The position numbers and the translations under genes are program-made. Below the pieces are notes generated by a model, which saw nothing but the letters and a program-made list of their open reading frames with translations, did not search any database and had not been told where the DNA came from. From assembly GCA_965644265.1 (NCBI GenBank), contig OZ286467.1:30380001-30444000 (forward strand): 64,000 nucleotides of DNA, read 5' to 3'. Every line of letters starts with the position of its first letter. Within the stretch, counting starts at the first letter, position 1. Origin of the DNA: Glycera tridactyla (Eukaryota). This document shows, one piece after another, positions 1,430 to 54,865 of this stretch.

Positions 1430-1444
1430 TGATGATGATGATGA

Positions 1445-1475
<31 letters not shown>

Positions 1476-22244: not shown

Positions 22245-22278
22245 ATCCTTCAATTATCCCACCATCCGGGTTTCATTT

Positions 22279-22364: not shown

Positions 22365-22408
22365 TACTCAAATGATGGACCCTCCTATCCGTCCCCGCTA
22401 ACTTTTAT

Positions 22409-30323: not shown

Positions 30324-31326
30324 TGAATATCTCACAAGCCAATTCCACTGATAGCCATTTAGACTGGGTTCTACACGGATGTAGGTACTCTTGATGTGAT
30401 CCACAGACTATAGATGATTGTAACACACTTCCTAGATATCCAAGATGTAGATTATAGACTCGCTTTGATTCCAAACAGCTCTCAGCGGTTTCCCTAACTA
30501 CTCCACTCTATCCAGATACTGTTGAACGTAGGGCAGGCTGGAGACGTGATGGGGGATGACTTCAGGATCACTCATTTGTGGCAGTTATCATAGAAGATGG
30601 TTCGCTCTGGTTCATCATAGAAGAAGGACGAGTAGATGTAGAGTTTCAATCTTTATTCCACACACTTCACAACAAGTATATAGATAATACAGTTGTTTCA
30701 GAAGGTGGGGAGAGCGTGGAAAGCAGATACTTCTTCACAGCAGTACGACCAACGGCAGCGTAGAATTCCCAAGGCGATCTGCTTTCCCCACACTCCCCAC
30801 GAGATATTTATACTGGACTCACATGAGTCCAATCAACCAATCATAAGACCCCAGGGGACTTGTAACCATGAGGATCTTATTTGGCAAAGAGTATTTCCTT
30901 CTAAATCATGTTTGTTGCTGATGAGTCATAGGGCCTACGCCCAGTTACCACTTCGCGCCGGAAATGGATCAATGTTGGCAATTGGCCAACCACAATAATT
31001 CTGACCAATGGTCGGCCGGTTGGCACGTGATATACGTATGATATGTACGTGATACCCTCGGCGTGCCTGCGCAATATGGACATGCCTATAAATGATTGGT
31101 CATGATTGGCTAGCGTCTCGGGGGACTCCATGTAATAGAAGTTTAGTAGAGTTCTATCCCCAGATATTCGGGTCCTACACAGGCAGTCTGCCAAATTTTG
31201 TATAACACTGTGCCAGCTAGCGCCTGATCTTGTAACCCTAATCTCTCCTAATGCAAGTTGTTTGAAATTCTGTAGATATAGTTTATCAAATGTTTTAGAT
31301 CATGAAATTCTCGCTGAGATATTACA
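30324..31326 (-). repeat. 3' LTR (TGTAATATCTC...GAGATATTCA on the minus strand)
   Basis: 30326-31319 matches 47040-48033 with 5 substitutions and no indels (by-eye comparison). Confidence 0.95.
30652..30657 (-). terminator. AATAAA poly(A) signal in the 3' LTR
   Basis: tttatt on plus, ~155 nt downstream of the LTR TATA box. Confidence 0.6.
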
Positions 31327-31336
31327 TCTCTTCTCT
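31327..31336 (-). other. Polypurine tract AGAGAAGAGA
   Basis: Immediately upstream of the TG that starts the 3' LTR. Confidence 0.75.
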
Positions 31337-33998
31337 GGATGCTTAGCCCTCAAAGCATCGAGCTCCCCATTCTGAATGTGTTGCCAATTGAATGAGTCCC
31401 CAGGGACTCTGGATGGCCACCATCGGAATTATATAAGAATATCGGCCAAGTGCCAACCCAATCAAGTGTAAATATGACATCCTTCAGGTATGTCTGTCAG
31501 TGATCGGTTGGCAATCAACCAACCCTCCACAATCCTCCCGACAGAGGTAGGACCTCTATTTTTGGTCCTAGGACTATAGGATTTGAAATTATTTTTGACC
31601 GTCTAGTACTGACCCCCGCCTGGGTACTGACCCGAACAGGTTGTATTGACCCAAAATAGACTAACCCCGGTTCCTCCAAGCCTAGTGTTAGTCTTTCCCA
31701 CTTTTTGTATACCTTCCCTCGAGTAATTGTCTGAATTCTCGCAATCTGACTATGATGCTCTAAGGATAACATCACCAAAGCCAACATCATCGCTGTCAGC
31801 CAGATTGAAGGATTTTTATACATGATTTGTCTCCGTGAATACTGACCCGGCCGCGATTGGCGGTCTCCTTGGTTCCACGGATAGAGATTGCATGATTTTT
31901 CTCGCCAACAATCTCCACGCAGGGGTCTGACACGAATTTGGAATATTTTTTGTATCATACTGCAATTTGACCTAATTCTGTGCATAAATTTAAATCAGCG
32001 AAAAATGACTTGAACAAGAGAATGCGACCAAACCGCCACTAAAACGATTCAATCGCATGAAAAAGACTCTCGCAACCATGACTAGAAGGAAATATTACTG
32101 AGATATTACATCTCAGAGCCCACCCTCGTGGTTATTTGACCAAAACATTATGAAATTGAATACAATCGAGCCGGCTCCTCCGCGTGTCAACCTAGGCCAT
32201 AGAAAGCAGTTTGTCTCTCGGGTCGGCAGTCCGAGAGGGCTGATATCCGGTATACACTCCATTCTGGCCAGGCTCACACACAAGAACAACCAGCTCTCCT
32301 GCTACCAAAATTAATGAAACCCAGTTTCCATTGCTATAGGACAGATAGGGAAAAATCCCCGAAAATGAAAAAGAGGGGGGACTATAGACGCATGTTGACG
32401 TCGACAGAATGGATCAACAGAGAATTACAGTATCAGTGTAAAGAAAAAGACATAAGAGATATGAAATACAAACCCGACAAGAATAGATTGACTCCCTGGA
32501 TCGAACCTTCCACCTGATGGCATAACCAAGCCACCTGACACCACTCAAGCGGCCTGGCACCCCACCAGGCTTGCTGGCACTCTCCCGAGAGCCTCGATAT
32601 CTGCTCTCGTGCGGTAATACTCAATCAGGAAATAATGTCATTGCTAGCATCAGGTATCACATACAAGTGACCCATGCCTGAACCCACACGACAGTCAACA
32701 TATTTGACTAGAATGTCCACTCTCTCTCGTGCGAGTCCATATGAATGATATGATGTGTCCATTGATGGTAACATATGATCATAATCCAGGATATGAGTCC
32801 AAGACATATATGGTACAAAAATGAAAGACTGAGCGCCATATTTTATACATCGTCCTTACTGGCCGACCCTAGATTCATTATCCTCCCTGAACCCTGAGCT
32901 CTCATGCTAGCTAGTTAGGGTCGACCAGAAGATGGCTGATAATCCATGATAAGATGGTGAAGTATGATTGATGACAGGTCGTTGGACGGTCACCCTTTCC
33001 CCACACCATCAATGCATCATCTGCGAGAGCCAGAGCCATACCTCTAGTGTTCCATCAAGGCGCATGTCTCTGAAACTCAAGCAAATGAACATATCAGGTT
33101 AATAACCGTTCAACACGTCAAAATCCCCATCAATCAATCAACATGCAGTCCACCATCAATCATAACATACCACTATCAGCTAGTATAAATACTATCAATG
33201 CTACAATTACGTTACAGTATCACAGCCTCTTTGACGGTTGGATATATATATATATATATATAAGCTTTACATGATAATCACAATGACATAAATGGAACGA
33301 TGCTGCCAACAATAATGTTTATAATAAAATCATACTGAGAATACGAGGGATAAAATATGATTAAATGCACTTAAATAAGATAATGCGGTTAATATATGGA
33401 TAAATAGTAGCAATATAAGCTACGGGGATAATGTTTTTATGATTTTTCGTTTTATATATATTTTTTTTGTTTTGTTTCACAATCATACTCTCATGCATAT
33501 CACAATATTATCTTTCAAGAGCAAACGAGAGGTGGCCACGCAGGTCGACATGCCCCCTTTTTATACCAGGATGCAGAGGCCAGTTACTGCCAGGCAGTCC
33601 CATGTGCAGCATCGTATAACCCCCTCCCGAATACTGAACAAATCCTGGCTGAATCAGTCAATCAATCAGTCACACCATACTATCGCATTATTGAGAGCGG
33701 ATTCAGTCAGGGGTGAAGGTTTGGAATCTACCGAGAGACGATAGGTCATCTGGTCTCTCGTGCAGATTCCATGTCAGAAGGACTCTATGGAAACCTCGAC
33801 TGGACAGTGGTTCATGGGCAATTTTTTTCGTGATAACTACTCTCGTGCACCTAGTTGGGAATCTGGTATATAGAGAGATCCCTACATGTGCATGTATATG
33901 TGTAATGTGAATGAAATGATGTATGAACTGCCAAGTTCATTCCATGCGCTCTCAGGCTTTTCGAAGTCGCATGAGAGGTGCCACCACACCAGCATTAT

Positions 33999-36900
33999 CT
34001 ATTCCCCATTACACCCCAGATTATCCCGCCCGAGAGAGTTAACAGAGGTCAAAGGGACTTGGTCCCTGTGGATGATAGGTGTCTGGTCTAGGTTTGGATA
34101 ACACAGGGGTGCAGATGGTGGAGGTGCATAAAAACCCTTGCATGCGAAACCATCGCATGCTGGAGTGCATATCTTTGGAATGATGTACACCCTCCCATTC
34201 ATTTCTATCTTGAATACTGCTGAAAACCTGCCCCTCAGGATACTCCTCACTGTCTTCACCTGCCATGGCAGGAGCATTATCCTACATGGTGGTTCAAGTG
34301 GGTTCAATCCCAACCTATTTCCTATTATCATGCCTCTCCAATATACATCCAGATACCTGAGAAACCCTCTACGCATGATCTGGTATGGCCCAGGACTACC
34401 ACAACTCATTAAATGATAATTTGCTGACGCCCCCGGTAACTTCATAACCAGAATGTCGATTGTGTCTATCAGGTTCCCCAATTCCAAGTAGAGTTTGCAT
34501 CTCGTGCGAATTCTAATCGTATATATGATCCACATCAAGAAAGTGATGACAGCCATTAATGCTATGATCGATATGCAACTCAATGCATTTACTACCCCAG
34601 CATAGGTCTCGCTCAAGCAAACAGGAGTTTCCGGTTGAATCATGCGATTTCCGGCTAGATCCGGAATGAGAGGCATCAGTGTGGTCGACTGGGTTCGACC
34701 CGCTAGAAATATTCCACGTGGAATCTCTAGAGTCTCGACCGCCTCGCCTGTCTTGATTAACCCCACCAGACTGTATGCCTTCACCGCGTGTTCGATTAGT
34801 CTGACCGATCGTCTTAGATACAAAGCCAATGCGATAGAACCGGTGGCTACTAAGAGACTGAACAGGGCGAATACATTCGAAAGTGTGAAGAAATCGCCCG
34901 CTCGGTCAAAGTTCCATGTACTAGACGGAATCTGTCGGATCGGGTCGACCTTGAGACCTTCTTTGGCTTGCCTCATGACAGCAGTCAACTGCATCGAATA
35001 GTCATAGTCTCTATTGATGTTCACGGCGAAATCATCACTCACTTTTATATGTGGAAGGGCTGGCAACCATTTTTCTTTGGACAATGCGCCACCATTCAAC
35101 TCCCCTAATTCCTGAGCATCGTAAATCATGGATATTGCTGCCAGATTCACAGGATATTCGACCATATGCTCATCGGATGGGGGTAAGCAGTTATTTATTC
35201 TTGGTGGTAAGGCTGCTGCTGATATTTCATTTGAAACATGCAGAGCACAGCCACATTGGAGAGTAATCTGACAATAGACGCAGCCTGGCTTCTTTTGAGG
35301 AAGCTGCTGACCGCATTGAAGGACCATTGCATTCGCATTATGAACTAATATCCGGCCATTACCAACGTCGACCAGGTCGACCATCGGGTCGGTTCTCTCA
35401 AATCTAAAACCACACAATCTTCTCACATTCTCTGAATGGTCCAGAAATATCGCAGCCATGCAAGAGGGCTGGTCTATGCTGAATATTTTCAAAGATGATG
35501 TACAACGAAATGCTGTGGTATCATCACAACGTGATAGGTCCTTGTGAGTCATTTCAATGAAACTCCTCTTGTCCTCCGTGATTCCAAAATATTCTACACC
35601 TGATTTCAGACGTGTGGTCTGGGTAGACGTGTCTGTAATAGGAGTGTTATGAATTGAGATGGAGTACAAAAAGAAGTCCTTTTGAAGAGATGACATTGGA
35701 AAGTCCAACGTGATCAACAGATTCTCATCATCAGTTCTGAAGTAATTCACCCTCCCATGTTTGTAATAGAACTGTGGATTGATTTCGGTGAGATGAAAGT
35801 GTGGATAATCATACACAATCTGCTCCTGTAGGGAAGCGATCGTGCTGGCCAGCACTGTGTCGTTAATTAGATATGGGCTCAATTTTCCTTGAACCAAGTC
35901 ATGAACTGCTGACCTCAGGTGTTCAATTTCTGGATTTAGAACTTGCAACCTCTCAATCATGGTTGCCAACACATTTCCAGTTAAAATTGAATGCTGTAAT
36001 ACTTGCCACAGTCTGGCATCAATGCTGTCAGATAATTGCTCCAATTCTCTATAGACGTCCTTCTGCAACCCTGTGAGGGCCTTAGCAACGTTTTCAAAAC
36101 GTTGGGACGTCACGTCCATGAAGGATGCAGTTTCCTGTTGGAATTTAGTGAAACGACCCGAGAGGGTGACCTGACTCTCACTAACTGCTCTCACCACATC
36201 TTTCAGTCTGTCCATATCGGTTCCAGTTGCCAGACCGAATACATGTTTGCCTAGCCACGCGAACGGATTCCATCTCTTCAAACGTTCTGACGTGATCAGC
36301 GGTAAGTTCTTTTTCAAGTAATTCCCTACATCCTCCAGTTTCTCAGCCGCATTATCTAATAATCGTTCTGTCATATTAAACATGCTTATACTGATGTCCA
36401 ACTGGTAACCTACAAACTCTCGGTTCGATTCTGGGAAGACTACCCTACGGTTTGAACTGTCATGATTCGCATGCTGCGTGATTTCACGTCGACGCCTCAC
36501 GAGCGATGTGGTCGATCTCAAGCTGGGCTCAAAACAACCTCGCTGTCGACATAAATTCTGAATGCATTCTACTTGGTCTCCACATGCTTCTTCGACCGCC
36601 AGTTTCGCACACTGGGCGGTTTCATTACGTTTCAATACCACGCTGCCGTTCGTGATCATCAGCCTCACCCCACCCTCGCATGATCCAAAGATGCGTTGAT
36701 AGGTCTCCAGCAATGCTCGGCCGACTGCTGAATTACTAGTCTGATCACGTTTGGCTCTTGGTCTTCGAGAGGTGACATTTCGGGTCGTTAGCGATAATAT
36801 AGATGCTCTCGCATTATTCAGGTCTGTTGCCATGCGATCTCTGAACGCGTGGAGACGATTTATGACATTGAAGTCATCCGCACAACCTGATTCTTTACAC

Positions 36901-37109
36901 ACATCCGGCAATTCGCCAAATATTTGTACTGTCACGGCTCTCGGTATCTCAATACGAAATACATGCACCCATGCAGAAGTGGATGGATATAGCGTCTTGA
37001 GAGGTTGAAACATGATACCATAGTTTGGTCTACTTACCGGGTTGAGAGGTGATTCTGTCGACCCGAGAGCCAGACACCACCATGCGAGGTGGATGGTTAA
37101 CCAAACCAT
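33999..37109 (-). CDS. env: Envelope glycoprotein, class I / baculovirus-F-like, 1036 aa, intact
   Basis: Signal peptide; furin sites RAKR, RRRR, RLKR; fusion-peptide-like WNPFAWLGKHVFGLAT; heptad region; Cys-rich ectodomain; two hydrophobic C-terminal segments; Kozak aacATGg. Confidence 0.9.
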   Translation of the reverse strand: MVWLTIHLAWWCLALGSTESPLNPVSRPNYGIMFQPLKTLYPSTSAWVHVFRIEIPRAVTVQIFGELPDVCKESGCADDFNVINRLHAFRDRMATDLNNARASILSLTTRNVTSRRPRAKRDQTSNSAVGRALLETYQRIFGSCEGGVRLMITNGSVVLKRNETAQCAKLAVEEACGDQVECIQNLCRQRGCFEPSLRSTTSLVRRRREITQHANHDSSNRRVVFPESNREFVGYQLDISISMFNMTERLLDNAAEKLEDVGNYLKKNLPLITSERLKRWNPFAWLGKHVFGLATGTDMDRLKDVVRAVSESQVTLSGRFTKFQQETASFMDVTSQRFENVAKALTGLQKDVYRELEQLSDSIDARLWQVLQHSILTGNVLATMIERLQVLNPEIEHLRSAVHDLVQGKLSPYLINDTVLASTIASLQEQIVYDYPHFHLTEINPQFYYKHGRVNYFRTDDENLLITLDFPMSSLQKDFFLYSISIHNTPITDTSTQTTRLKSGVEYFGITEDKRSFIEMTHKDLSRCDDTTAFRCTSSLKIFSIDQPSCMAAIFLDHSENVRRLCGFRFERTDPMVDLVDVGNGRILVHNANAMVLQCGQQLPQKKPGCVYCQITLQCGCALHVSNEISAAALPPRINNCLPPSDEHMVEYPVNLAAISMIYDAQELGELNGGALSKEKWLPALPHIKVSDDFAVNINRDYDYSMQLTAVMRQAKEGLKVDPIRQIPSSTWNFDRAGDFFTLSNVFALFSLLVATGSIALALYLRRSVRLIEHAVKAYSLVGLIKTGEAVETLEIPRGIFLAGRTQSTTLMPLIPDLAGNRMIQPETPVCLSETYAGVVNALSCISIIALMAVITFLMWIIYTIRIRTRCKLYLELGNLIDTIDILVMKLPGASANYHLMSCGSPGPYQIMRRGFLRYLDVYWRGMIIGNRLGLNPLEPPCRIMLLPWQVKTVRSILRGRFSAVFKIEMNGRVYIIPKICTPACDGFACKGFYAPPPSAPLCYPNLDQTPIIHRDQVPLTSVNSLGRDNLGCNGE

Positions 37110-37453
37110 GTTCTAGACCCACACTGTCGTTGTCTGAAACAGACGACAGACGGATAATGAGTATCCCACCTCTAACCCCATCATCATGCGTATACCCAGG
37201 AATCTATAATTCAAGCGCATGATCATCATGCGACTGCATGAATTCTTACATGACGATGTCAAGAGTCTACATCTCATAAACCAGACTGTGAATCTAACAC
37301 GTGTGTTTCCGTTTGTGTTTCAGTGTTACTACACCCTATCATTCTAACCTCTCAGCCTTGCATTATCTACAGCGAACTCTAACCCTAGACTCTATTTCTA
37401 TAGCTATTTTCGTTATCATTACTGCTTCCCTTTTCTTCCATATCTACCTCAAC

Positions 37454-38344
37454 ATGTCATCTCTTCATCCTTCTATCATCGAATGGGTGGTAGCTATGAC
37501 CACCAGGGTCTGGGCCGATTGGGGCCTGGACAGGGCGGACATGGTGGTGGGCGAGGACTTGGTCCTCATGGTGCTGAGACCCTTGCCTGGGCAGTTAGGA
37601 CTGTCCCTGGCCACTCACCTGACGGGCAATGTGGTTCCCTACCACCACACTGCCCACGTGGCTGCCTGGACGGGCAATTATGAGGTCCCCGCGGCATGGA
37701 CCACGCACCCTTACCCACTATATTATGGGGACCAGGGTGCCATGTCCAGGGCGCTAAGGGACTTGCCCCTCCTGGGCTCCATCGCCACCTCTCCGTCCAT
37801 GGGACCTTCGGGGTATGCCCCCTCCACGCTAGTGGGTCTGCCATTGGAACCAACCCCGGGTTACCCAAGTTCCATGTCCCAGGCCCCGAGCATTGCCCCT
37901 TCCCTGGCTCTGGCAGGGCATGGACAGCCTCTGGCCCACCCAGCGCCCCGGTCCCCAACTCGGCGTCCAGGGTACGCCCAACTCAGAGAGCAGGTTAGGT
38001 CCCCCTATAGTCGAAACCCACCCCAAGTGGGGTTCTCACGTGGGTCTGCTGCCCGAACTAGGCCCCTGCCCTCCATATCTACCCTGCCCCCCATGGCCCA
38101 TGCCCATCGTTCAGCCCCCCAACCCTGGCCTGTAGCGGTGATACCCCCTGCCCATCAGGGCCCACCCTTGTCAGGTAATCCCTTGTTGAGGGATTTGTTG
38201 AATAGAGACGACCCCTTGCCCCCCCAAGTGCAGGACGACTCCCTGTCGTCCACACTGGGTCCCTTGGGCCGTCCTTTGTTCAAGGACGAGCCTGACTCTT
38301 CCTCGTCCAACGAGGGCGAGGCTGGTCGGGGCATTAGACGGTAG
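37454..38344 (+). CDS. Antisense ORF inside the ERV, 296 aa from the first ATG (open frame from 37301), unknown Pro-rich protein
   Basis: ~1-kb stop-free, GC-rich frame between pol and env with no overlapping long sense ORF; aacATG context; not repeat-derived. Confidence 0.6.
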   Translation: MSSLHPSIIEWVVAMTTRVWADWGLDRADMVVGEDLVLMVLRPLPGQLGLSLATHLTGNVVPYHHTAHVAAWTGNYEVPAAWTTHPYPLYYGDQGAMSRALRDLPLLGSIATSPSMGPSGYAPSTLVGLPLEPTPGYPSSMSQAPSIAPSLALAGHGQPLAHPAPRSPTRRPGYAQLREQVRSPYSRNPPQVGFSRGSAARTRPLPSISTLPPMAHAHRSAPQPWPVAVIPPAHQGPPLSGNPLLRDLLNRDDPLPPQVQDDSLSSTLGPLGRPLFKDEPDSSSSNEGEAGRGIRR

Positions 38345-38720
38345 ATATCCGCCCCATGTATAGTCTAGGTTACCTCTGCATGCTGCCCACTCAGAATCCA
38401 TGTAATCTCTATTATATCATATCTCTATATATACTCTATATATCTTTATTCAATCATCATGCGATCAACCATGTTAATCAGTATCTATCTCTGCATGTTG
38501 ATTATCCCTGTGATTCTATAATGATCTATATGGAGGCTCGGCGGCACGAAAGAAGCCCAAGTGGCCCAGCACAAGGGAGGCATCATAGCTCCCCTTTTGA
38601 CACCCTCCCTTATTCACCAGGTAAGTGAATATTTATGCATCTGTTGACAGGGATCAGCTGTCATGTCCCAGATGACAGGACTATCTTACTAACATGTTAT
38701 CCTCTTCCTCCCTTGATAAA

Positions 38721-38722
<2 letters not shown>

Positions 38723-38765
<43 letters not shown>
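38723..38765. repeat. (AAT)n microsatellite within the ERV
   Basis: Direct sequence. Confidence 0.95.
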
Positions 38766-38766
<1 letters not shown>

Positions 38767-39103
38767 CAAAATCAGCTATTCAGAGAATTCATCTTGGCTT
38801 CAGGAATTCCGGGTCGATTCTACCCTAAATCCGACCCTAGATAGTAGAGCACAACCTCTCTTGCCTGGCGACTGAGTGAGCTGATTTCCGCTGATCTACT
38901 GACTATGACGCTGATACCTGATTCATTTCGACCCTGAAATGATTTCTTGTTAGGTTGAACTCTCACAGTTCTATTTTCTAAGCCATTACCTAACAATAAT
39001 AAGCGCTATCAGGCTTTACAAATGGCTATATTGAAGGAGTGGTGGTTCCGGACGCTGATATCTCGTCTAACCTCTCATGCGAGTATCAGTTTCTATACGC
39101 TAC

Positions 39104-40650
39104 CTAACTTCTCGCCTGTCCCTTCAACAATCGTTTCTGACTTCTAGTCACAGGTCCGGATGAGCGTATAGTGAATCTATTTGGCTTATTGGGGTTAAGT
39201 GGCTGCCTGGCCACTGCTGGGTTAGACTTTTGGACCAAATCTGCCCCTACTCTCGGGTCAATCGGCGTTGGCGCCTCTCCCAGAGCGCGAAGCCGGCTAT
39301 CGTCCTCACGGCCGAATAACGATAATTTGTTTCCATGCATTAGTGAGCCCAATGCGAGGTTCGTCTTCGCATCTTGAAGGCGAAACAGGACGCCACCTAG
39401 TGTATCCATGATACGATAAGGTCCAGTTCGCTGATTGTCGGTTTTTCCCACTGCTTGACCAGCGGGTCGAGCGGTCTTCAGCCAGACCAAATCTCCGACT
39501 TTAAATGGCATGGAACTCACGTGATATCGGCGCTCGTACACTTCTTTATACCTCTGAGCTGCTTCTTCTAAATTTTTCCTAGCGATCTCTCGGTGAGCAG
39601 TCAGTTCCGGTAAAAGGCATTCAAGGAAATTTTCGACATTTACTCCCAGAAATGCCGGATTTCTAATATCACAAAACTCTCCGACCCTAGTATCTACCCC
39701 TGTAGCCAAGAACAGAGGAGAATACCCTGTAGATTGAGATGCTGAAGTGTTCAAATTCAGTCTGACTACTGGCAGAAATCTAACCCACTCTTTTGTCTTG
39801 CTAACTAGAACTCGCATGATATTCAAAATCGAACTATTGACTCTCTCTACCTTCGCATTACTCTCGGGTCGATGGCTGCTAGTGTATAGTCTCTTATAAC
39901 CAAACTGCTGAGCTAGGGTCTTCATTATCTGGCTTCTAAAGCTCTGGTGTCTGTCTGTCGTCAGAATGACAGGACAGCCATGTCTACAGACCCATTCTCT
40001 GAAAAATGCTTTGGCAATGGTCTCCGCTCTCTCATTTGGAATGGCAACTAGTTCTACATATGCAGAAAATGAGTCTATTATCACTAATAGCTTCGCATGG
40101 CCTGTGTTAGGGTCGACGGGTAGAGATAATACATCCATATGAACATGATACCAGATAGGGAATATCTGGCGAAGTTCCAAAGGTGCTTTGTAGGAGTTAT
40201 ATGGCCTCTTACCTCGGCCACACGTCTCACAGCTTCTAACATAAGCTTTAACATCGCTAGCCATCTTGGGCCAGTAATATTTCGACTTAATGCTGATCAT
40301 CAATTTCAACACTCCTCTATGGCATCCCATCAGACTGTCATGGTGTACTTCCGTAACGTACAGCCTGAACTGAGCTGGTAAGCATAATTGCAATATCTCT
40401 CGACCCGCTGATTTCGACCCATGCGGCTGGTGTATTCTGTATAACAGGTCTTCCTCGCCTAAAATATAGTGCTGATGGTCTCTCAATACCAACTTGGCCA
40501 AATGAGCTTTCTTTGGCAAGGTTTCATGCTTTAAGTAGTGATAAATGCATTTGAAATCATCGCTGTCTTTCTGCATGTCTCTCAGAATAGCAGCGTCTGC
40601 TCTGAACTGCTTAAGTTGCTCATCCAGCAGCTTAGGACCTAGAACGCATG
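39104..40650 (-). CDS. pol: Integrase part of pol, -1 frame relative to RT-RH
   Basis: HHCC (HHDSLMGCH...CETC); D (HMD), D (TTD), E (KVER); GPY (TGPYRI); no chromodomain. Confidence 0.92.
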
Positions 40651-43338
40651 TGCTTCCTCACTGTCATCTAATATACCCTGGTCTCTGTCATCAGCAGCTG
40701 GATCCCTACCCTGCTCTTGTGCATGTGCTTCTTTCTGTTGCAGTGTGTATGCATCTTTGTAAGGTGTATCATGGCGTGATATATCAGCTATCTCACTTAT
40801 TGTCTTTGCAGCAGGACCATGACTTTGTTTCAGAGTATGCACAAACATGACTATTGTATCATCAAGTGGTGTACCAAGTTCTCTTTTAGTATAGCTCAGT
40901 TTGACAGACTTATCTTCTGGAATACGTGATAATGCATCAACCGCCTCTATTGTTTTGCCAGGAGCATGCTTAATTTCAATGTCAAGTCCCTGTATCTCTA
41001 AGGCCCACCTAAGCAGCTTAGGAGCTGAGGACGTCCTAAGTCCCTTCAAGTATCTAGCAGTCAGATTATCCGTGGTCACATGAAGTTTCTGCCGTCCTAA
41101 GAGATGACGATATAATCGTATAGACATGATAAGACTGAAAGCTTCTTTCGAGTTGATGTCCCACACACGTTGTTGTGTGTTCAATTTCTTTGAGAAAAAT
41201 GCGACAGGACGAAGAACCTCATTATCATCTTTTTGACTAAGAATAGATGATATGCTATGTTGAGATGCATCTGTAGTCAGAAAGAATTCTTTATCAATGC
41301 GAGGATAATAAAGAACCGCATTTTTCAGTAATTCTTCATTCAATCTGTCCATGCTTTCTTGACACTTTTGGTTCCATCTGAACTTCACATCTTTTTGGGT
41401 CAAGTTCGTGATAGGCTCAGCTATTTCAGCATACTTTTTCACAAATTTTCGATAATAACCAGTCAATCCCAACCATCTCCTGACTTCTGTCACATTGGTT
41501 GGCGCAGGGAAGTCCTGAATGGACTTCACTTTCTCAGGATCAGGTGTTAAGCCATCCTGTGTCCAAATATGTCCTAAGAACTTCAATCTTTTGCGAGCAA
41601 AGTCGCATTTTCTTGGATGAACAGTGAAGCCATATTGTCTGAATTGATTAAAAACTTTGGACAGGTGTATTAAGTGGTCTTGAAAAGTACGACTTGCAAC
41701 AAAAACGTCATCAAGAAAGTTGAAAACGTAAGTTTGTCCTAGTCTGCTTAGTGCAGCAGACATGGCTCTACTGTAAGTGAAAGGGGCCAAGCTTAGGCCG
41801 AACGGCATCCTAAGAAACTTATAACACCCTTTTCCAGTTGTAAATGTGGTGCAATCTTGACTGGATTTTTCCATGGATATCTGATAATATCCAGATAGCA
41901 TATCTAGAGATGACATCCATTTGGGAGATTGACGTGATATTGCATCATGAATATCATCAAAAGTAGGCATAACAAAATAGCCAGTGTCTTTTTGTGTCAT
42001 TGAATTCAAAGCTCGATAATCGATGCATGCTCGATATAGGACTGTCCCGTCAGGTGCTCGATTTTTCTTCTTCACCATGACCACTGGGGACTGCCAGGGA
42101 CTATCTGACTCGACAATCACTTTTGCAGCTAACAACTCCTGTATCTGTTTATCCAGAGATTCTTGTTTCTCTGGACTCAACCTATATGGTCTCTGTCTGA
42201 TAATGCGGGTATCAGGTTCTAACTTGATTTCATGTTCTACACACGTGACCTTGCCTAACTGTTCAGTGGAAGTAGCGAAAATATCACGATTTTGATTTAA
42301 CATGTCTACAAGCTGGCGTTTCTGGTGCTTATTGCAGTCTGATAAATCTAAGATATCAAACCACGGAATCGGCTCGAATTCCCGATCCTGCCGAAGTTCC
42401 AAACCTAGCACATTGTCTTTGAAAGCCTCAGTATTGAAGTAATTCGGTGGTACGGTCACATCAGTCTGTGTCTCAAGTTCCGTATTTTGTACTAGCATGA
42501 TGATTTCCTGTTTAATGTCTGCTGGCTCTAAAATGGTATAGTCATCGTCCAACGTAACGTACGCTATGACTGTTTCCGCCGGAATCACGCATTCGACCCC
42601 GCTAGAGTTCGCTAGTTTCACAAAAAGCGATCCCGAATTCGTGACGGTAGCCAGACAGGGATCGAACTCGATGTTCGGCGGGAGGTCAGGGTGATGCGAA
42701 GGGAGAACACAGACCTGGTTCTCGTCTGCATTAGCGGCCGCGCTGGCGACAGCTGGGGCAGATAAAAACTTCAAGAATTCTTTGCTTGCTATCTGTAACT
42801 GAACTATCTGGAGTGTGTGTGGAGGAATCGTGATAGATTTAGTATTTATGACGTCCACTGCTTTGTGAGATGAAATATTAGGGAGGATACTTGCTACCAA
42901 TGGCGAATCATCAAAACGGATATTGTTCTGTTTAAAATCTATCTTTGCATGGTGATTTTTCAAGAAGTCTACCCCCAAAATGAGTGAAACTGGCAGTCCA
43001 TCAGCGACCGTACACGAAAGCTGATACTCCCTCCCTGCTATTTCAATTATCAACTCGACTTGGCCAATGACAGGCATCTGGCCACCTGACGCATCGGTCA
43101 ATCGTACCGTACCGCCAGTGGAGATTGGCAGAGCGCCATCTATATTACAATTCCTCCATGTTTCCTTACTAATCATGCTAACTGACGCACCGGTGTCAAC
43201 CAACGCTTTGAACCTGATTCCCTGGTGTTTGACATAAATGAAATTGCCGTGTAGGTTGAGTGTATGCATGTATTCCTGATCTCTTACTAATAGAACTTTT
43301 GGTGCCCATGTTTGGTTTTGAGAGAGTCCCCCTTGATT
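40639..43338 (-). CDS. pol: Protease - RT - RNase H part of pol
   Basis: ALVDTGAS, IDYRALN, LDMLSGYYQI, MPFGL, FLDD, TTDAS, TTDN, VDALSR. The frame is open from just after the gag stop; first ATG at 43269. Confidence 0.95.
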   Translation of the reverse strand, partial: NQGGLSQNQTWAPKVLLVRDQEYMHTLNLHGNFIYVKHQGIRFKALVDTGASVSMISKETWRNCNIDGALPISTGGTVRLTDASGGQMPVIGQVELIIEIAGREYQLSCTVADGLPVSLILGVDFLKNHHAKIDFKQNNIRFDDSPLVASILPNISSHKAVDVINTKSITIPPHTLQIVQLQIASKEFLKFLSAPAVASAAANADENQVCVLPSHHPDLPPNIEFDPCLATVTNSGSLFVKLANSSGVECVIPAETVIAYVTLDDDYTILEPADIKQEIIMLVQNTELETQTDVTVPPNYFNTEAFKDNVLGLELRQDREFEPIPWFDILDLSDCNKHQKRQLVDMLNQNRDIFATSTEQLGKVTCVEHEIKLEPDTRIIRQRPYRLSPEKQESLDKQIQELLAAKVIVESDSPWQSPVVMVKKKNRAPDGTVLYRACIDYRALNSMTQKDTGYFVMPTFDDIHDAISRQSPKWMSSLDMLSGYYQISMEKSSQDCTTFTTGKGCYKFLRMPFGLSLAPFTYSRAMSAALSRLGQTYVFNFLDDVFVASRTFQDHLIHLSKVFNQFRQYGFTVHPRKCDFARKRLKFLGHIWTQDGLTPDPEKVKSIQDFPAPTNVTEVRRWLGLTGYYRKFVKKYAEIAEPITNLTQKDVKFRWNQKCQESMDRLNEELLKNAVLYYPRIDKEFFLTTDASQHSISSILSQKDDNEVLRPVAFFSKKLNTQQRVWDINSKEAFSLIMSIRLYRHLLGRQKLHVTTDNLTARYLKGLRTSSAPKLLRWALEIQGLDIEIKHAPGKTIEAVDALSRIPEDKSVKLSYTKRELGTPLDDTIVMFVHTLKQSHGPAAKTISEIADISRHDTPYKDAYTLQQKEAHAQEQGRDPAADDRDQGILDDSEEAHAF

Positions 43339-45480
43339 TCATGCTGACATTTTGTTATACCAACAACTTTCTGTGGCATGGCTGTTACCACAGGTGCCAC
43401 AGGCTCGTTTTCTGTTCATGTCTGGCAGATTTCTGGCCATGCTGGCCTGTCTGTCAGAGCAGTTGCTCATGTAGTGACCATCCTGGCCACACCAGAAACA
43501 GACCACCCCCATGAAATTTCTGTACCCATCGGAATTTCCAGTGTTCATCCTCTGGTTGGTTGGAGTTTTTCCAGCCTCCATAGCACAATTTGCCGTCCAA
43601 TGGCCTGTGTTTCCACACTTGTCACACTTGGCTCTGGATTTCTCACTTTCCAATGATCTGCAATTTCTTTTCATGTGCCCTGATTTCCCACAGTGAAAGC
43701 ACTTGACATTCTGGAGAGAAGCTGAACTTCTCTGGGGTCCTGCTCTAGCTCCACCCCGAGCTCTACCCCTGCCTCTGCCACGGGTGGTGACAGAGTTTCT
43801 GGAATTTTCAATCATGTTAATCTGGCCTTGGATTTCTTCGGATTTGTCTGGAATGTCAGCCTGAGTGGCTGTGGCACTCGTGAAATTTTTCGGCAGTTGT
43901 TGAACTGTCGAAATGATCCCATCATCCATCCCTTCAGTCATCTTAGCATCTCTGGCTGCAGAGACGATCCCTTCCAGGGTGTCAGGAGCTCTCATCAGGA
44001 TCAAATTCCTGACAGGATCCCTACACCCCCTGATGATGACATACATCAACTGTCTCTCCTCATCATCAGTGAAATCTGCATCTAATTCTTTCTTGAACAC
44101 CCTCTTTCCCCTGCCTATGACTTTCCTGACGAATTCTGTGGCTGTATCGGTTCCTTGTGTTAAGGAATTTAGATCATGCAGCCTGTCCCAACACCGATAG
44201 CCTATATCCCCAAATTCTTCAAGGAATTTTGTTTTCAGGTTCACAGCTTTTTCTTTGAGTGCCTCAAACCAAATGCAAGCTGTGTCTCCCAGGACCATGG
44301 GCATGATCTCTTCAGGTTTGATGTCTTTGTACTGGCAGTATTTTTCGAATTTTGACCACCAGACATGTGCATCACTTTTGCCTGCCTCAAAAATGGGCAG
44401 TTTCATGATGCTTCCAGCCCTGTCGAATTTCTTCAAGGCTGCAGCTATATCATCAGCTGCTGCGGTTGGTTGTTTAGCCATGCCTGAATTGTCTGGATCG
44501 TCTCGATTAGAGTCGTCTGGATCCGAACCGTCTGGATCTGAATTTTCTGAATCAGGGTTGCCTGAGTGATCTGAACTCTCTGGATTGTCTGGATTGTCTG
44601 GGTGGTCAGGTTGTGTCTGATACTGTTGACCACTTTGTTCAAAATTATCTGAACCTGAACCAGGTTCACCAAAAGGGTATTGATGTGGGATCTGTTGTAT
44701 AGGACTTGACGGATCAGAGCTTGGATCTCTCGGCTCCGAGGCCTCAGGATCCGTGTGTTCTGTGGAGGATCCGTCTGGAAAATTCCTGTGACCCTCTTGA
44801 TCACTTTCTCCTAAAACTTCTTCAAGAAATCCCTCGGGAAATAGTCTAAACTCTTCAGGGTTTGGATATGGAGTGTCTACTGAATTCTCAGCTATGCTGA
44901 TGTCTGAATCAAATAGATCTCCCTGCAAAATTCGTCTGGAAACTCCCTCCCGCTCTGGAAATTCAGGCTGGTGTGCTTCCCCTGCCTTTGGTGGTCTTTC
45001 TGTGATCTGTTGAGCTAGCCTGTTTTGCACATGTTTGTCTTTACTAGCTCTAGTTGCCCAAGCTGGTGGTAAGGTATCTTCTACCTCCTTCTCTATAGAA
45101 ACAGCACCCCCTGGTGTGTTTAACACCCCAAGCTGTGATTTCCCGTGTTTCCCTGGTTTTCGTGGTGTTAGTGGTGGTTGATCTGGCTTAATCTGTGGTG
45201 GCACAGGCGGTGATGGTAGTACTGGATGTGGTGTTAGTACTGGATCAGCCTGTGACAACACAGGTAGAAGTGGTGGTTGTAGGAAAGGTGTAGTAGAAGT
45301 CGTATCCTGTGGTGGCACAGGTGGCGGTGGTGGTGGTGGTGGTGGTGGTGGTGGTATCACAGGTGTTATAGCTTGTAATTCTATGAGGTTTTGCTCAAAA
45401 TCTATAGGATAGGCACCCTGCTTGCTCCCTTCTTCACTGATTCCAGATGGAGGTGGATCGTTTGGGCCGAATCCTGACAT
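43339..45480 (-). CDS. gag: Gag, 713 aa
   Basis: Pro-rich and acidic N-half; capsid-like LPIFEAG..WWSKFE region; CCHC knuckles CFHCGKSGHMKRNC, CDKCGNTGHWTANC, CFWCGQDGHYMSNC, plus CGTCGNSHATESC. Confidence 0.93.
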   Translation of the reverse strand: MSGFGPNDPPPSGISEEGSKQGAYPIDFEQNLIELQAITPVIPPPPPPPPPPPPVPPQDTTSTTPFLQPPLLPVLSQADPVLTPHPVLPSPPVPPQIKPDQPPLTPRKPGKHGKSQLGVLNTPGGAVSIEKEVEDTLPPAWATRASKDKHVQNRLAQQITERPPKAGEAHQPEFPEREGVSRRILQGDLFDSDISIAENSVDTPYPNPEEFRLFPEGFLEEVLGESDQEGHRNFPDGSSTEHTDPEASEPRDPSSDPSSPIQQIPHQYPFGEPGSGSDNFEQSGQQYQTQPDHPDNPDNPESSDHSGNPDSENSDPDGSDPDDSNRDDPDNSGMAKQPTAAADDIAAALKKFDRAGSIMKLPIFEAGKSDAHVWWSKFEKYCQYKDIKPEEIMPMVLGDTACIWFEALKEKAVNLKTKFLEEFGDIGYRCWDRLHDLNSLTQGTDTATEFVRKVIGRGKRVFKKELDADFTDDEERQLMYVIIRGCRDPVRNLILMRAPDTLEGIVSAARDAKMTEGMDDGIISTVQQLPKNFTSATATQADIPDKSEEIQGQINMIENSRNSVTTRGRGRGRARGGARAGPQRSSASLQNVKCFHCGKSGHMKRNCRSLESEKSRAKCDKCGNTGHWTANCAMEAGKTPTNQRMNTGNSDGYRNFMGVVCFWCGQDGHYMSNCSDRQASMARNLPDMNRKRACGTCGNSHATESCWYNKMSA

Positions 45481-45557
45481 CCACCCAAAAATCAGTGAAA
45501 AATATTTTTGAACCCCAAGCGAAAAATGAGATCGCGGTCCCCTCTATCCCAGGAATT

Positions 45558-45932
45558 CTATACAGTGCCATAAAAATATACACCTACGTTTTCAGGGTGT
45601 TCCTGGCCGTGTGCGTCAGTGTTCACGGTGTCGCTGGGTGTGTTGCCTCGACAAACTGGCTTTTGTTCGGCGTGAACCTTGTGCGTAGCCTGCGCTTTCC
45701 AGTGCTCGTATTCCTGAACTGTCGCTGATGTCTGGCGACGATTTGCCGGTTCCCTGATCACCCAGCGATGCGTCGTTCTCCTCCTCGCAATGTTTTTATT
45801 CTCAGTTGGAATGTACTCGTCCGTCGACGAAACCGTAATTTCACGTTCCACACTCTGAGTTCGCTGGTTTCTTCGAGGAAGACAGCAGTTGAACGCTGAA
45901 GGCCTGGCTCGGGTCTGCGTTGGTTTCTTCAT
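45558..45932 (-). CDS. Possible 124-aa leader ORF (ORF0), Arg-rich
   Basis: ATG-initiated sense ORF upstream of gag; no recognised domain. Confidence 0.25.
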   Translation of the reverse strand: MKKPTQTRARPSAFNCCLPRRNQRTQSVEREITVSSTDEYIPTENKNIARRRTTHRWVIREPANRRQTSATVQEYEHWKAQATHKVHAEQKPVCRGNTPSDTVNTDAHGQEHPENVGVYFYGTV

Positions 45933-47022
45933 ACGTTTTGTAGACGTAGCTTGAGTCCTGGCGACGTTCCTTGACGATTCTGCGTTGTTCTCGATCTTTC
46001 TGCTAGGTGGTAGACATCGGCAGCGCCCACTAGCGCCGCCCCGTGGCGATGATGAGCTTGTGACGACTTGTGCAACGTCTGGTCCTGTGACGTATTTTTG
46101 ACGGACGTCACGAGTGCGCTCAAGAATTCGACTGCACGACCCACGCCTTTCCCTGTTTTTAAAGCTTCACAGAGAGAGACGAAGACGTTGTCTGGTCCCT
46201 TCCTAACGATTCATCGACGGCACAACAGTACCGCCCCGAAGTTGAGCTTGCGATGACTTGTATGCGAGATCTGGCGTTCTCCAACGTCCTCCAACGTCCT
46301 CACACGTGGTCCCTTCGAAAGGTAGGCGTCTCCAGTCGTTATCATCGATGGTACGACAGTACCGCCCCGAAATTCTCGCTTGGACGATCGCTGGTCCTCT
46401 CGACGTCTTGCAGGTACGTCCCTTCACGAACGTAGGCTAGTCTGCTCTTAGATGGTTGTCATCGACAGTACCACACGTACTGCCCCGAATGCTGAGCTTG
46501 CGTAGACTTGTCTCGGCTTCTCGATGTCCTCCTACGTCGTTTACGTCCCTCAGACCTTGTAGAAGTTGATCGTCGACTGGCTCCACGTATACCCAACCGG
46601 ATCGTTGATTTTTCGTTGCTGCAACTAGACGGCTGTGTAGCCTGGTGAAGTCAGGCCCGCTGGCGACGTTTCGACGTAGATGTGGTCCCTCCTCGATGAC
46701 TGGATTCGCTGCTGTTGTGTGTGAGAAGAACGGCTTGCTCTCTCGACGCATTCACGGTCCCGAATCGTACCGCTGCTAGCCACTGATCTGCCGTGGCGAA
46801 GCGCGGTACACTGGTCTTGTCACGAAATAGGAACTTTTCTCCTCCCTAATGTAGGGTAGATGCTGATAATATGACCTTTCCTCACGGATTTGACGTCCTC
46901 GCAAATTTTGACGTCACTCTGAGCTGATTCCGCTCGTGCAGATGACGAAAGATCACTTTTTAACCACTGCTCTCCCCACACTCCTACATGAAACGATGAT
47001 TCACACGCGATAACACTGCCTT

Positions 47023-47040
47023 GAGATGGATTCTTCACCA
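47023..47040 (-). other. Primer-binding-site candidate TGGTGAAGAATCCATCTC
   Basis: TGG abuts and overlaps the last LTR base; cognate tRNA not identified. Confidence 0.65.
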
Positions 47041-48040
47041 ATATCTCACAAGCCAATTCCACTGATAGCCATTTAGACTGGGTTCTACACGGATGTAGGT
47101 ACTCTTGATGTGATCCACAGACTATAGATGATTGTAACACACTTCCTAGATATCCAAGATGTAGATTATAGACTCGCTTTGATTCCAAACAGCTCTCAGC
47201 GGTTTCCCTAACTACTCCACTCTATCCAGATACTGTTGAACGTAGGGCAGGCTGGAGACGTGATGGGGGATGACTTCAGGATCACTCATTTGTGGCAGTT
47301 ATCATAGAAGATGGTTCGCTCTGGTTCATCATAGAAGAAGGACGAGTAGATGTAGAGTTTCAATCTTTATTCCACACACTTCACAACAAGTATATAGATA
47401 ATACAGTTGTTTCAGAAGGTGGGGAGAGCGTGGAAAGCAGATACTTCTTCACAGCAGTACGACCAACGGCAGCGTAGAATTCCCAAGGCGATCTGCTTTC
47501 CCCACGCTCCCCACGAGATATTTATACTGGACTCACATGAGTCCAATCAACCAATCATAAGACCCCAGGGGACTTGTAACCATGCGGATCTTATTTGGCA
47601 AAGAGTATTTCCTTCTAAATCATGTTTGTTGCTGATGAGTCATAGGGCCTACGCCCAGTTACCACTTCGCGCCGGAAACGGATCAATGTTGGCAATTGGC
47701 CAACCACAATAATTCTGACCAATGGTCGGCCGGTTGGCACGTGATATACGTATGATATGTACGTGATACCCTCGGCGCGCCTGCGCAATATGGACATGCC
47801 TATAAATGATTGGTCATGATTGGCTAGCGTCTCGGGGGACTCCATGTAATAGAAGTTTAGTAGAGTTCTATCCCCAGATATTCGGGTCCTACACAGGCAG
47901 TCTGCCAAATTCTGTATAACACTGTGCCAGCTAGCGCCTGATCTTGTAACCCTAATCTCTCCTAATGCAAGTTGTTTGAAATTCTGTAGATATAGTTTAT
48001 CAAATGTTTTAGATCATGAAATTCTCGCTGAGAAATAGTA
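47040..48040 (-). repeat. 5' LTR
   Basis: Direct repeat of 30326-31319 at offset 16714; the outer terminus is diverged. Confidence 0.95.
47521..47526 (-). promoter_or_regulatory. TATAAA box of the 5' LTR, with upstream CCAAT boxes (~47695, 47810, 47820)
   Basis: Motif order CCAAT - TATA - AATAAA along the minus strand fits U3-R-U5. Confidence 0.6.
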
Positions 48041-51000
48041 TCATTCAATTTTCATTACATGTTTTACGTATTCAATTGTGTGTGTATTTGCTTCGTCACC
48101 CTGAGGATGTGCGCATTGTCCATACTCGTGTATGAATGTATTGACTAAGATAAATTATGTGTGAAGAAAATAATCATCACAGCTCGAAAATGGTCATTGT
48201 ACAGGCTGATCGAAGCAATATCATGTGAGGAATGAGATGTGGATCGATCACTGTCGAGTACGTTTTTCGCCCGAGCATTTCAAATCAGATCGAAATGAAA
48301 CTTACACACAGACATTTCCGACATCGACGTCGACGAGTAATGTAATTTTGGCAAGGTTCCCTTGTATACTTGACATCGGAGCACCAAATATTTCGATTTC
48401 ACATTGGTTTTGCGGCATGTGCGGCGGCCACTTTCTCACATACAAATATAAGATTTAGAGTACGATAAGAACATTATCAATTTACTCCTCGATTGATTAA
48501 TGCAGTACTGCTGTTGTGAATGGATACACTTTTCTAATTAAGCAACAATTCAGAATATATCAAGCAAAAAAAAGGCTGTTTGCCTATTGGCATCATTGCA
48601 TCACACAATTACAATCTCTGCAATCTCTGCGATGTAAGATGATATTTCTTATCCTGATTCTGGCTGTTTTTCATCGATTTCCCAGACAAATACGAATTGC
48701 TGTGTACAGCAGTAGGTGATAAAACCGATGAAACAGAACATGTTTTCTTGGATGTCTTCATATATGAGTCACTTCCTTCATCAACGTTCCGTGAACATTC
48801 TCGTGGACCGTCAGTGCTTTGACTGAGCGAAATGAAGAGGGAAATGAAATCAAAGCAGATGCCGATTATGATCTGAACCTAATGATGCTTTCAAAGACAA
48901 GGGGTACTATTATAAATGCAGGCTGAAGTGTCTGGAGTTCGAATGAGGTGACTCTCACATAACTGTTCCTCAAGATGTGTATTCGTCTAATCATTCAGCT
49001 CCGAACTTCACTAAGAGTGGAAATCACACCAGGAGGTTCACCTATCGAATGACAATGATAATGGTAATGATAACCATGATATGATCCATGATATATACAT
49101 CCAAGACATGCCATGAAGAAAGTGAATATGGTCAGCAGGTTGGATATCACATTGGCAAATGTATGATTTCAACAAGAATAGTATTTCAGTGCTCTTTGCG
49201 CGACTTTCTCCATGTCCTTGTGAATGCACCTACCGGAGGTTCGAATCAATATTTTCCATGATTTACCCATGTGAATATCCATGAGAAGCTCGCATATCAC
49301 ATCCGACCCAGCTGGTTAACAGAAACATTGTGTGTGATAATATCATGGCCGTTCAAGAGAGGATGGAATATAGCTAACAGATTGTACCCTTGAGAGACGA
49401 GAAAAGTTGTCAGGGGACCCATGAGATAGCAACCCAGAAGAGAAAACTTGATAGATGCATATATCACTTTCTTCTGCAGTACATTCGATGGTGACACCCG
49501 GCAACCCAGCAGATATTTGTCATCCCATATCACACGGNNNNNNNNNNNNNNNNNNNNNNNNNNNNNNNNNNNNNNNNNNNNNNNNNNNNNNNNNNNNNNN
49601 NNNNNNNNNNNNNNNNNNNNNNNNNNNNNNNNNNNNNNNNNNNNNNNNNNNNNNNNNNNNNNNNNNNNNNNNNNNNNNNNNNNNNNNNNNNNNNNNNAGA
49701 CACCGGAATGGATTTTGTGTACTAACTACGTCATGACGTCACTTTTGATGTCGCATCCTGTCACCAGGTGGTTCCAGGTGTCATCAAAACAGCACAATGC
49801 CTCTGTGACATCACAGAGGCAGATATTGTCCATTGTTACCTGATCACCATCTCAAATCTCCTGTAATTCAATACATTCATTTGAATTCACTTGAATTATA
49901 TGGATACTTTCTGTATCTCAATACCCCTGAATGAAAGCATTATTCCACCCTCATCCACGAGAAATGTAATGATGTAATGCAGGTGCCTTTGTAAATGAAG
50001 GCGTTTGGGTGGTGTGTATGAACATTGCGTCTGGGGAGGTTTGTTAGGATCATGCATTTTGGCAGGTCTCCAATTATAGCTCAAAGTCCCAGTTTTCGGA
50101 TTAGATGCAGTGTGTCCTACCGAGGGATAAAAAGATCAGGTGGCAAGGCAAGGAGGGTTCCATCCTCAAAGGGATCTAAAATATGTGTTGGGCGTATCTT
50201 TTATCCAACCAAAATAACCACACTACAAATCAGAATTTCTGCATAGATATGGAAGACAAATTTCAAATTTCTATAAACAAATAGATGGATAAATGAAATA
50301 AATGAGTATATATATGTATATATGATGTAGGAAATCGAATCCAACTCTGTCACACGCTGGTTCTAGTTGGTATTTTGTCATTGAATCAATTTCTTAATTT
50401 ATATCGACAGGACCTGGTCGAGAATCTTGAAATAAAATCCGAAAGTTCAGAAAAGGATGACATGATGTTCTTCCGTACTATATTGAGGTAAATGGTAATG
50501 TGTGACTGTTCGGCAGCCAATCAAAGATATTCATCAGATTACGACTGGTTTGCATCTGCACAGATTGAATATCAAGTGGTTCTTCATTTGTGACTACGCC
50601 CACGACATGGAATGGAGGTTGAAAAGACACATCCTTGCAGTTTGATTATCTAAGAAACATACTATGTATTTCATTCTCACTTCTTTCCAGGCCAAGGACA
50701 GATTCACTTCTAATGCATGAGGAGCGAAAGGATTAGGCGAGAATACATAATCTGCATACATGCATCGTTGAGTCAATATATGTCATAAAGCATCAAACTA
50801 TCTTGAACCCCCCGGGATTTGTCCATGTCTGATAGATGAGTGCAAAACTTCTTGTCTAGCAAGAAGACAGTGTTTATTGTATTGGCAGATCGTCTTGGGA
50901 ATTGTCTGCATCCGATGAACACGTTACTCATGAAGTTATTCACGATGCCATGAGCAATATACTAGGATGGGAAATGCTGTTCATATTCATCATGGTCTGA

Positions 51001-51074
51001 TAGTAGCTAGTTTTCCACATGGTAAATATTGACGAAATTGACTCATTGGACATTTATACGGTTCATGCTGACCC

Positions 51075-51207
51075 TGGTGATGATCGATGATGATGATGAT
51101 GATGATGATGATGCTGCTGCTGTTGCTGCTGCTGATGATGATTATAATGATGATGATGATAATTATGGTAATGATAATGATGATAGTAAGGATGATGATG
51201 ATGGTAC

Positions 51208-51260
<53 letters not shown>

Positions 51261-51262
51261 TT
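51075..51262. repeat. (GAT)n microsatellite
   Basis: Direct sequence. Confidence 0.95.
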
Positions 51263-54804: not shown

Positions 54805-54865
54805 TTTTTCTTCTTTTTCTTCTTCTTCTTCTTCTTCTTCTTCTTCTTCTGTCTCTCTCTCTGTT
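54805..54865. repeat. (CTT)n/(CT)n microsatellite
   Basis: Direct sequence. Confidence 0.9.

Follow-up and report, generated by a model that had tools for sequence, protein, structure and literature searches.

How does an enveloped Ty3/gypsy element come to be 17.7 kb long, and what does the extra length hold? The question is raised by a 64,000-nucleotide stretch of the Glycera tridactyla genome (assembly GCA_965644265.1, contig OZ286467.1, positions 30,380,001 to 30,444,000 of the forward strand), here called the window, in which a Ty3/gypsy element of 17,704 bp occupies positions 30330-48033 on the minus strand. Complex retroviruses of vertebrates are distinguished by accessory genes with a regulatory role and by additional classes of transcript; descriptions of invertebrate errantiviruses give them three open reading frames (ORFs). 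The initial annotation took the element for a recently active 'complex' retrovirus with accessory genes; a 296-amino-acid (aa) antisense ORF and conserved splice signals were absent from its description. We consider the architecture described below very probable. On balance, we favour reading the element as a recently active, enveloped F-type 'ancient errantivirus' whose extra length includes an antisense gene, which probably regulates expression of the element itself, and a further splice acceptor, one that a sister family uses.

The antisense ORF lies head-to-head with env at an ATG-to-ATG distance of 344 nt and has no overlap with the sense genes:

37454..38344, plus strand: antisense ORF, 296 aa, with an N-terminal domain of about 118 aa and a Pro/Ser-rich tail
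33999..37109, minus strand: env, 1036 aa, F-type

When the first 149 aa were used as a query, 150 matches were obtained, the best 150 of 1,435 candidates in the genome, with identities down to 25%. Most of these matches are in open frames, and a second query yielded further groups. Around the matches 28 loci of 20 kb were fetched; the homolog lies in antisense orientation between integrase and env in 26 of them, and the remaining two are deleted fragments. Nine groups of elements with the antisense ORF are present in this genome, designated A (the family of the window element), A2 and B to H, with reverse transcriptases (RT) 85-90% identical to that of the window element. Their lengths are 16.6-18.0 kb in B, 16.5-16.9 kb in D (copies without insertions), 14.9 kb in E and 14.8 kb in H.

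Across 13 sequences the antisense protein is 16-69% identical, and between distant families its domain is 16-38% identical. Residues M1, R27, D29, G33 and D35 are invariant in all 13, so that the ATG and an R-x-D-x-x-x-G-x-D motif are conserved. The tail of these proteins is likewise Pro/Ser-rich, is often acidic at its end and is short in family E. In each of five close pairs the ratio of nonsynonymous to synonymous substitution rates (dN/dS) was low (0.19, 0.15, 0.056, 0.065 and 0.16), the differences fell mostly at third codon positions, and all five other frames contained stops. Because of these three properties the ORF is, judged by its pattern of substitution, a real protein-coding gene under purifying selection, kept across the nine groups. 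AlphaFold predicts for its product an alpha/beta arrangement (helix-strand-strand-helix-strand-strand-helix), with a best predicted local distance difference test (pLDDT) score of 78.8 and 78.5 in two runs. Pfam assigns no family to the window protein, and no family is common to more than two of the 13 members.

The second component of the extra length is a splice acceptor beyond env. It is listed here with the other sense-strand splice signals:

45582..45587, minus strand: major splice donor, 107 nt 5' of the gag ATG
37134..37141, minus strand: env splice acceptor, 24 nt 5' of the env ATG
33070..33106, minus strand: conserved non-coding motif of about 37 nt, with a branch-point-like sequence and a 3' splice acceptor

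A donor-like site is found 107-176 nt upstream of gag in eight of eight families, and an acceptor-like site just upstream of env in seven of the eight (the family B sequence ended short). The post-env motif lies 890 nt past the env stop and ends in TTTCAG. It is a strong non-coding match between family A and distant families, about 37 nt of it are near-invariant, and 12 of the 15 own-genome sequences tested contain it, belonging to groups A, A2, B, D, E, F, G and H (C was not covered). An 11-nt core of the motif also occurs in two of eight metagenome loci, 678 and 473 nt past env (0 and 1 of 3000 shuffles); these two loci reach well beyond the env stop, and the other six end in or near env. 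The envs of the two motif-bearing loci are 26-33% identical. Upstream of env, the metagenome loci include at most about 0.3 kb, which is short of the antisense-ORF position.

Use of these signals was observed in family D. A pattern search of this family for copies without the post-env acceptor gave one match, a 4,914-bp element that has both long terminal repeats (LTRs), with 97.4% agreement between them. In this copy an exact GT-AG join connects the leader donor (AAGG/GTGAGT) with the post-env acceptor; the 12.6 kb that is gone comprised gag, pol, the antisense gene and env. Applied to the env acceptor, this search yielded seven matches, two of which are exact donor-to-env joins of 8,280 and 8,151 bp (LTRs 99.9% and 98.5% alike) with env as the sole gene. 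These precise spliced retrocopies show that family D made three sense RNAs, all three of which were packaged and integrated. They also show that a single leader donor served two alternative acceptors, that of env and the one past env, and that both spliced RNAs were reverse-transcribed. No second fully spliced copy was found in family D. Four splice sites are present in nearly all family-A copies, from which we infer that family A uses the same splice programme. In the short spliced RNA no ORF is conserved and indels rarely come in threes; it is likely non-coding. Coding exons in the leader or beyond the post-env acceptor were rejected on the same grounds, a lack of any conserved frame and indels rarely in threes.

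Splice-like signals also flank the antisense gene:

38621..38626, plus strand: candidate antisense-strand donor-like site, 276 nt past the antisense stop

Donor-like sites with 8 or 9 of 9 consensus positions are found 121-378 nt past the antisense stop in eight of eight families, against a background rate of 0.25 per kb, and acceptor-like sites upstream of the antisense ATG are found in seven of eight, against a background of 1.2 per kb. This suggests that the antisense gene has a spliced mRNA. One locus, G000:C31 near 21156675 (L126), was considered as a processed antisense mRNA and rejected in favour of a deletion, as the donor GT is kept and a poly(A) is missing. In this fragment the antisense ORF region meets LTR sequence about 7 nt past the conserved antisense donor.

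The initial annotation referred to the baculovirus-F-related fusogens of errantiviruses, and Pfam Baculo_F matches the window env above its cut-off (E 1.8e-6, 27.3 bits, cut-off 24.1). It also exceeds the cut-off in two of three sister-family envs, and gives no match on the relative P0001. Furin-like sites are present at residues 118, 205 and 276, and the conserved hydrophobic stretch behind the third is a putative fusion peptide; a basic site and the motif W/G-NP-F/L-AW-x-GK-x-VFG were found in eight of eight aligned envs. Two hydrophobic segments lie near the C-terminus (737-755 and 835-868). We would expect Env to be furin-cleaved and fusogenic. At E 0.001 or better, 1,339 relatives of env were found among cluster representatives, the best at 35-36% identity, and an alignment of 650 columns with a pearl-oyster 'Envelope protein' has probability 100. 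Residues of about 870-1000 form a conserved domain beyond the second hydrophobic segment that is common to the pearl-oyster env. The length of env in the clade is 1036-1072 aa, versus about 800-850 in most matches, and its identity between families is 48-56%. An env profile search of the PDB gave nothing significant, and relatives of env or RT were not found in IMG/VR.

The remaining parts of the element are as follows:

47044..48033, minus strand: 5' LTR, 990 bp, integrated ends TCTCA...TGAGA (not TG...CA)
30330..31319, minus strand: 3' LTR, 990 bp
30326..30329, no strand: 4-bp target-site duplication, with its partner at 48034-48037
47029..47040, minus strand: primer-binding site, a 12-mer
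31327..31336, minus strand: polypurine tract
45481..47043, minus strand: leader between gag and the 5' LTR, 1,563 bp
43339..45480, minus strand: gag, 713 aa, open, with three zinc knuckles and at its end an in-frame TGA toward pol
39104..43338, minus strand: pol, encoding protease, RT, RNase H and integrase

The layout given by the initial annotation was confirmed. The LTRs differ at 5 positions over 990 bp without gaps, and the 994 bp reported before counts a few flanking bases; gag and env are open at 713 and 1036 aa, and pol has a single frameshift, between RNase H and integrase, and continues the gag frame beyond the TGA. The leader, pol-env and post-env intervals, put at 1.5, 2 and 2.7 kb, measure 1,563, 1,994 (GC 54%) and 2,679 bp. 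Gypsy-type domains in the order protease-RT-RNase H-integrase, together with the LTRs, primer-binding site, polypurine tract and target-site duplication, place the element in Ty3/gypsy (Metaviridae), and named RT matches include Pol of the transposon 17.6/297 type. With a gypsy-type pol and an F-type env, it lacks the retroviral RT clade and the surface/transmembrane (SU/TM) envelope of Retroviridae, and a Pfam domain scan of the element found no match to a retroviral coat family. The predicted 'accessory genes' were reduced to one, the antisense ORF: in a comparison with related families no conserved ORF was found in the leader or the post-env region, and a 124-aa leader ORF of the window copy is not kept in relatives. 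Within the element, Rfam gave nothing near its gathering score.

Three further observations concern the non-coding parts of the element. At the inner LTR borders (31319-31336 and 47029-47047) a symmetric AATA/TATT extension lies just beyond the integrated ends, which hints that more than 2 nt are trimmed at integration. At 46040-46520 in the leader a unit of about 20 nt recurs imperfectly, in three or four copies that have close matches in the family C leader and are a possible packaging signal. The primer-binding site varies among close families (A and B are alike; D, E and H are different), and these differences suggest primer tRNA switching. The window 12-mer is identical to the primer-binding site of Mare_errantivirus_1, which was assigned there to tRNA-Ala with 2 mismatches (PMC13524379); the tRNA match is putative here.

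A search of the genome with the LTR, in which 40 of 180 candidates were scored, gave 16 LTR pairs and single LTRs. Family A thus has at least 16 two-LTR copies, analysed as the window element and 15 LTR pairs fetched outside the window. LTR divergence was measured in 13 pairs and amounts to 1-5 sites of about 990 in 12 of them and 17 sites in one, in line with the recent activity proposed initially. Of the 16 copies, 4 have an uninterrupted pol (1388 aa), 10 a full-length env and 7 a full-length gag. The TGA at the end of gag is in frame with pol in all 16, from which we infer that Gag-Pol is made by TGA readthrough. The 4-bp target duplication is exact in 12 of 15 copies and AT stands at the centre in 15 of 15; family A is young and has a biased insertion site. 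One copy, G000:C39:63162979-63192269, is split by other elements that together measure about 11 kb, among them an LTR-type element of opposite orientation.

Beyond the nine groups, identity in RT/RNase H is 72-76% for five pol clusters and at most 41% for every other match. The nearest named RT matches are at 34-38%, and the Drosophila errantiviruses gypsy, ZAM and Idefix have no close RT relationship. In a tree with all 120 listed matches the nine groups and the five pol clusters form a long-branch clade with support 1.0, placed weakly beside proteins from oyster and abalone. Four of the five pol clusters have members on contigs of 16.8-18.3 kb, and one pol member and an env relative are on contigs of equal size (18,103). 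Giant relatives probably exist in other hosts, as judged from these contigs.

Two further features of the window lie outside the element. At 16120-22599 a second retroelement is bounded by inverted ends of 191 nt that are 87% complementary. It encodes an RT (Pfam RVT_1) and has an ORF resembling RNase H, a layout that suggests a degraded DIRS-type element; its putative recombinase ORF has no Pfam match. Positions 10-15879 and 49090-62064 are an old tandem segmental duplication of about 68-81% identity (blastn) that includes a 25-bp minisatellite, and no conserved exon is evident in it.

How might the parts of the enveloped element work together? Its genomic RNA would give Gag and, via TGA readthrough, Gag-Pol. 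The env-spliced RNA would give an F-type fusogen permitting cell-to-cell spread, and the short spliced RNA, which retains the leader and the 3' region, would be packageable and likely non-coding. The antisense gene would have a separate mRNA, probably spliced, that comes from the 3' side, and its product, a folded domain with a Pro/Ser-rich and often acidic tail, may tune transcription from the LTR or the proportions of the three sense RNAs, like HBZ of human T-cell leukaemia virus type 1 (HTLV-1). A regulatory, HBZ-like role of the protein is proposed tentatively and by analogy. With similar reserve we put forward a wider idea, namely that a clade of 15-18-kb enveloped gypsy elements independently evolved a complex-retrovirus layout, with an orphan antisense regulator, possibly of new fold, that has its own spliced mRNA, and with a short packaged non-coding RNA; the clade would extend to other hosts, where relatives on 17-18 kb contigs keep the post-env acceptor.

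Several results weigh against the reading we favour. Frame-changing indels are present in the antisense ORF of 10 of 14 young family-A copies, at 0.96 indels per kb versus 0.07-0.35 in env, gag and pol; 11 of the 12 frame-changing indels are downstream of the conserved domain, many of them in runs of C or G. None of the 16 family-A copies has gag, pol and env all full length. The post-env motif was missed in 3 of the 15 own-genome sequences, all of family B, and spliced retrocopies were seen in family D only, none being found in A, F and G. Because the families share ancestry, a site conserved in eight of eight does not represent eight independent events. In each fold run only two of five models exceeded pLDDT 70, and three of five were at 55 or below. 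The antisense protein had no match in a PDB sequence search, no outside homolog in two word-limited searches, a best Atlas score of 0.78, and in fold searches a best Z of 3.2 and 3.5 with no Foldseek match at E 0.001 or better. The fold is possibly new, and these limited null searches fall short of proof.

The main rival keeps the same architecture and makes the antisense protein a counter-defence factor, directed against host silencing (by PIWI-interacting RNAs, or piRNAs, or chromatin) or another restriction factor. It draws on the contrast between the divergence of the protein, which at 16-38% identity between families is far faster than that of env or RT, and the purifying selection seen within families, a combination typical of host-facing accessory proteins. 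The searches of Pfam, PDB and folds found no likeness to known suppressors, however, and we regard this role as unlikely.

A further alternative, which we consider improbable, makes the antisense gene a passenger picked up by the element, or else a cofactor in structure or entry, and the post-env acceptor mainly a cis-acting decoy or export element that sets the ratio of spliced to unspliced RNA, the short RNA being a by-product. This would fit a short RNA without conserved ORF whose indels are not in threes, the single fully spliced copy obtained from family D with its 619 first-look candidates, and a motif whose roughly 37 near-invariant nt exceed the needs of a plain acceptor. Yet the post-env site was used precisely in vivo in family D, and a passenger gene would hardly be kept under selection at the same place in nine groups. 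That the element is an ordinary errantivirus, with junk intervals and an antisense ORF that is a chance frame in GC-rich DNA, is very improbable and largely refuted: the 54% GC of the pol-env interval, the frequent frameshifts in the tail of young copies and the failure of the word-limited searches to find an outside homolog speak for it, but dN/dS is far below 1 with a third-position bias, and the ATG and the motif are conserved over 13 sequences where no sense gene overlaps.

The preferred reading, an enveloped element with a regulatory antisense gene and a second acceptor, would bear on how retroviral complexity arises. That a young enveloped clade of several families has a selected antisense gene and a used second acceptor suggests a renewed origin of such complexity outside Retroviridae, and the antisense protein offers an orphan domain that is open to testing. 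The spliced retrocopies are proof of an RNA programme from a genome alone, and they reveal env-only and protein-free mini-elements that are mobilisable in trans.

Among known systems, Drosophila gypsy, ZAM and Idefix have a spliced subgenomic Env RNA, a 4-bp target-site duplication with sequence preference and non-TG/CA ends, as here; unlike the window element, they are about 7-9 kb long and are not known to have more than three ORFs. As in F-type errantiviruses, the third ORF of the window element is baculovirus-F-related, with a furin site, a hydrophobic stretch and C-terminal anchor-like segments; the spliced subgenomic env RNA is represented by the two sister family-D retrocopies and is presumed for family A. 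A survey by Chary and Hayashi (eLife 2026, PMC13524379) described 1,512 env-bearing Ty3/gypsy elements across animals as 'ancient errantiviruses', including 74 annelid and 46 mollusc entries. In the 119 rows compared (74 of 74 annelid and 45 of 46 mollusc) env is F-type in all but one, LTR-to-LTR distances reach about 12.8 kb and coordinate spans 15.7 kb. These elements share with the window element the gag-pol-env order, a Ty3/gypsy pol, an F-type env in which a furin site and a fusion peptide are present, the occurrence of multiple young copies and a protostome host (PMC13524379). The initial annotation was right about F-related env in such elements, but env-bearing gypsy elements outside insects had been described already, and because those of annelids and molluscs are among them, env alone is not new (PMC13524379). 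At 17.7 kb the window element exceeds the maximum of 12.8 kb LTR-to-LTR among the 119 rows, but this comparison is censored because the survey discarded LTR pairs separated by more than 14 kb; it also limited pol-env gaps in its automatic step, and the size class seen here lies beyond its filters (LTR distance of at most 14 kb) and was not reportable in full there (PMC13524379). The window clade differs further in its env of 1036-1072 aa with three furin-like sites, and it adds the antisense gene and the second acceptor; in the main text of the survey the words 'accessory', 'antisense' and 'readthrough' have no matches (PMC13524379).

With HTLV-1 the element shares an accessory gene beyond gag, pol and env, here as for HBZ/APH an extra antisense-strand gene in the 3' half, as well as extra spliced RNA classes (PMC10186651). 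The third sense-transcript class, observed in family D, is singly spliced and apparently non-coding, unlike the tax/rex mRNA. HTLV-1 belongs to Retroviridae, with an SU/TM env, and HBZ is a bZIP protein that represses the effects of Tax and Rex and is made from a spliced 3' LTR antisense RNA (PMC10186651). The window protein, in contrast, is a predicted alpha/beta orphan whose gene lies between pol and env and overlaps no sense ORF.

Retand, of the plant Tat clade, is likewise a large gypsy element that owes its size to a long region past pol holding conserved antisense ORFs of unknown function (PMC11963269). It differs in its plant host, in having no env and in a TRP28 domain (PMC11963269), whereas the window ORF has no Pfam match and is accompanied by env. 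Membership in Retand was rejected on account of the env, the lack of a Pfam match of the antisense ORF and the animal mitochondrial code of the assembly. Its COX1 follows the invertebrate mitochondrial code, with ATA at conserved Met, AAA at Lys and AGA at Ser; an echinoderm, flatworm, tunicate, vertebrate or cnidarian host was rejected on this basis, and the protein looks annelid-like. A molluscan haemocyanin domain gave no match, a result that carries little information. Steamer is not known to carry an env. The mussel Steamer-like MchSLE-1 is another invertebrate LTR element with an antisense ORF and a 3' LTR-driven antisense RNA; its ORF has 67 aa versus 296 aa here, and the available text does not mention conservation across families (PMC10974842). 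Rotifer elements have extra sense ORFs (PMC5408684), in Tor elements of Oikopleura pol and env are separated by a gap that holds an internal env promoter (PMC4402516), and assignment to Troyka was rejected, given its 3-bp target-site duplication and CG ends (PMC12440569). For invertebrate enveloped gypsy elements, no conserved pol-env antisense gene or post-env acceptor was found in the literature covered, subscription papers being outside that coverage. Enveloped F-type gypsy elements are known, and the antisense gene and the post-env acceptor are what the window element adds to them.

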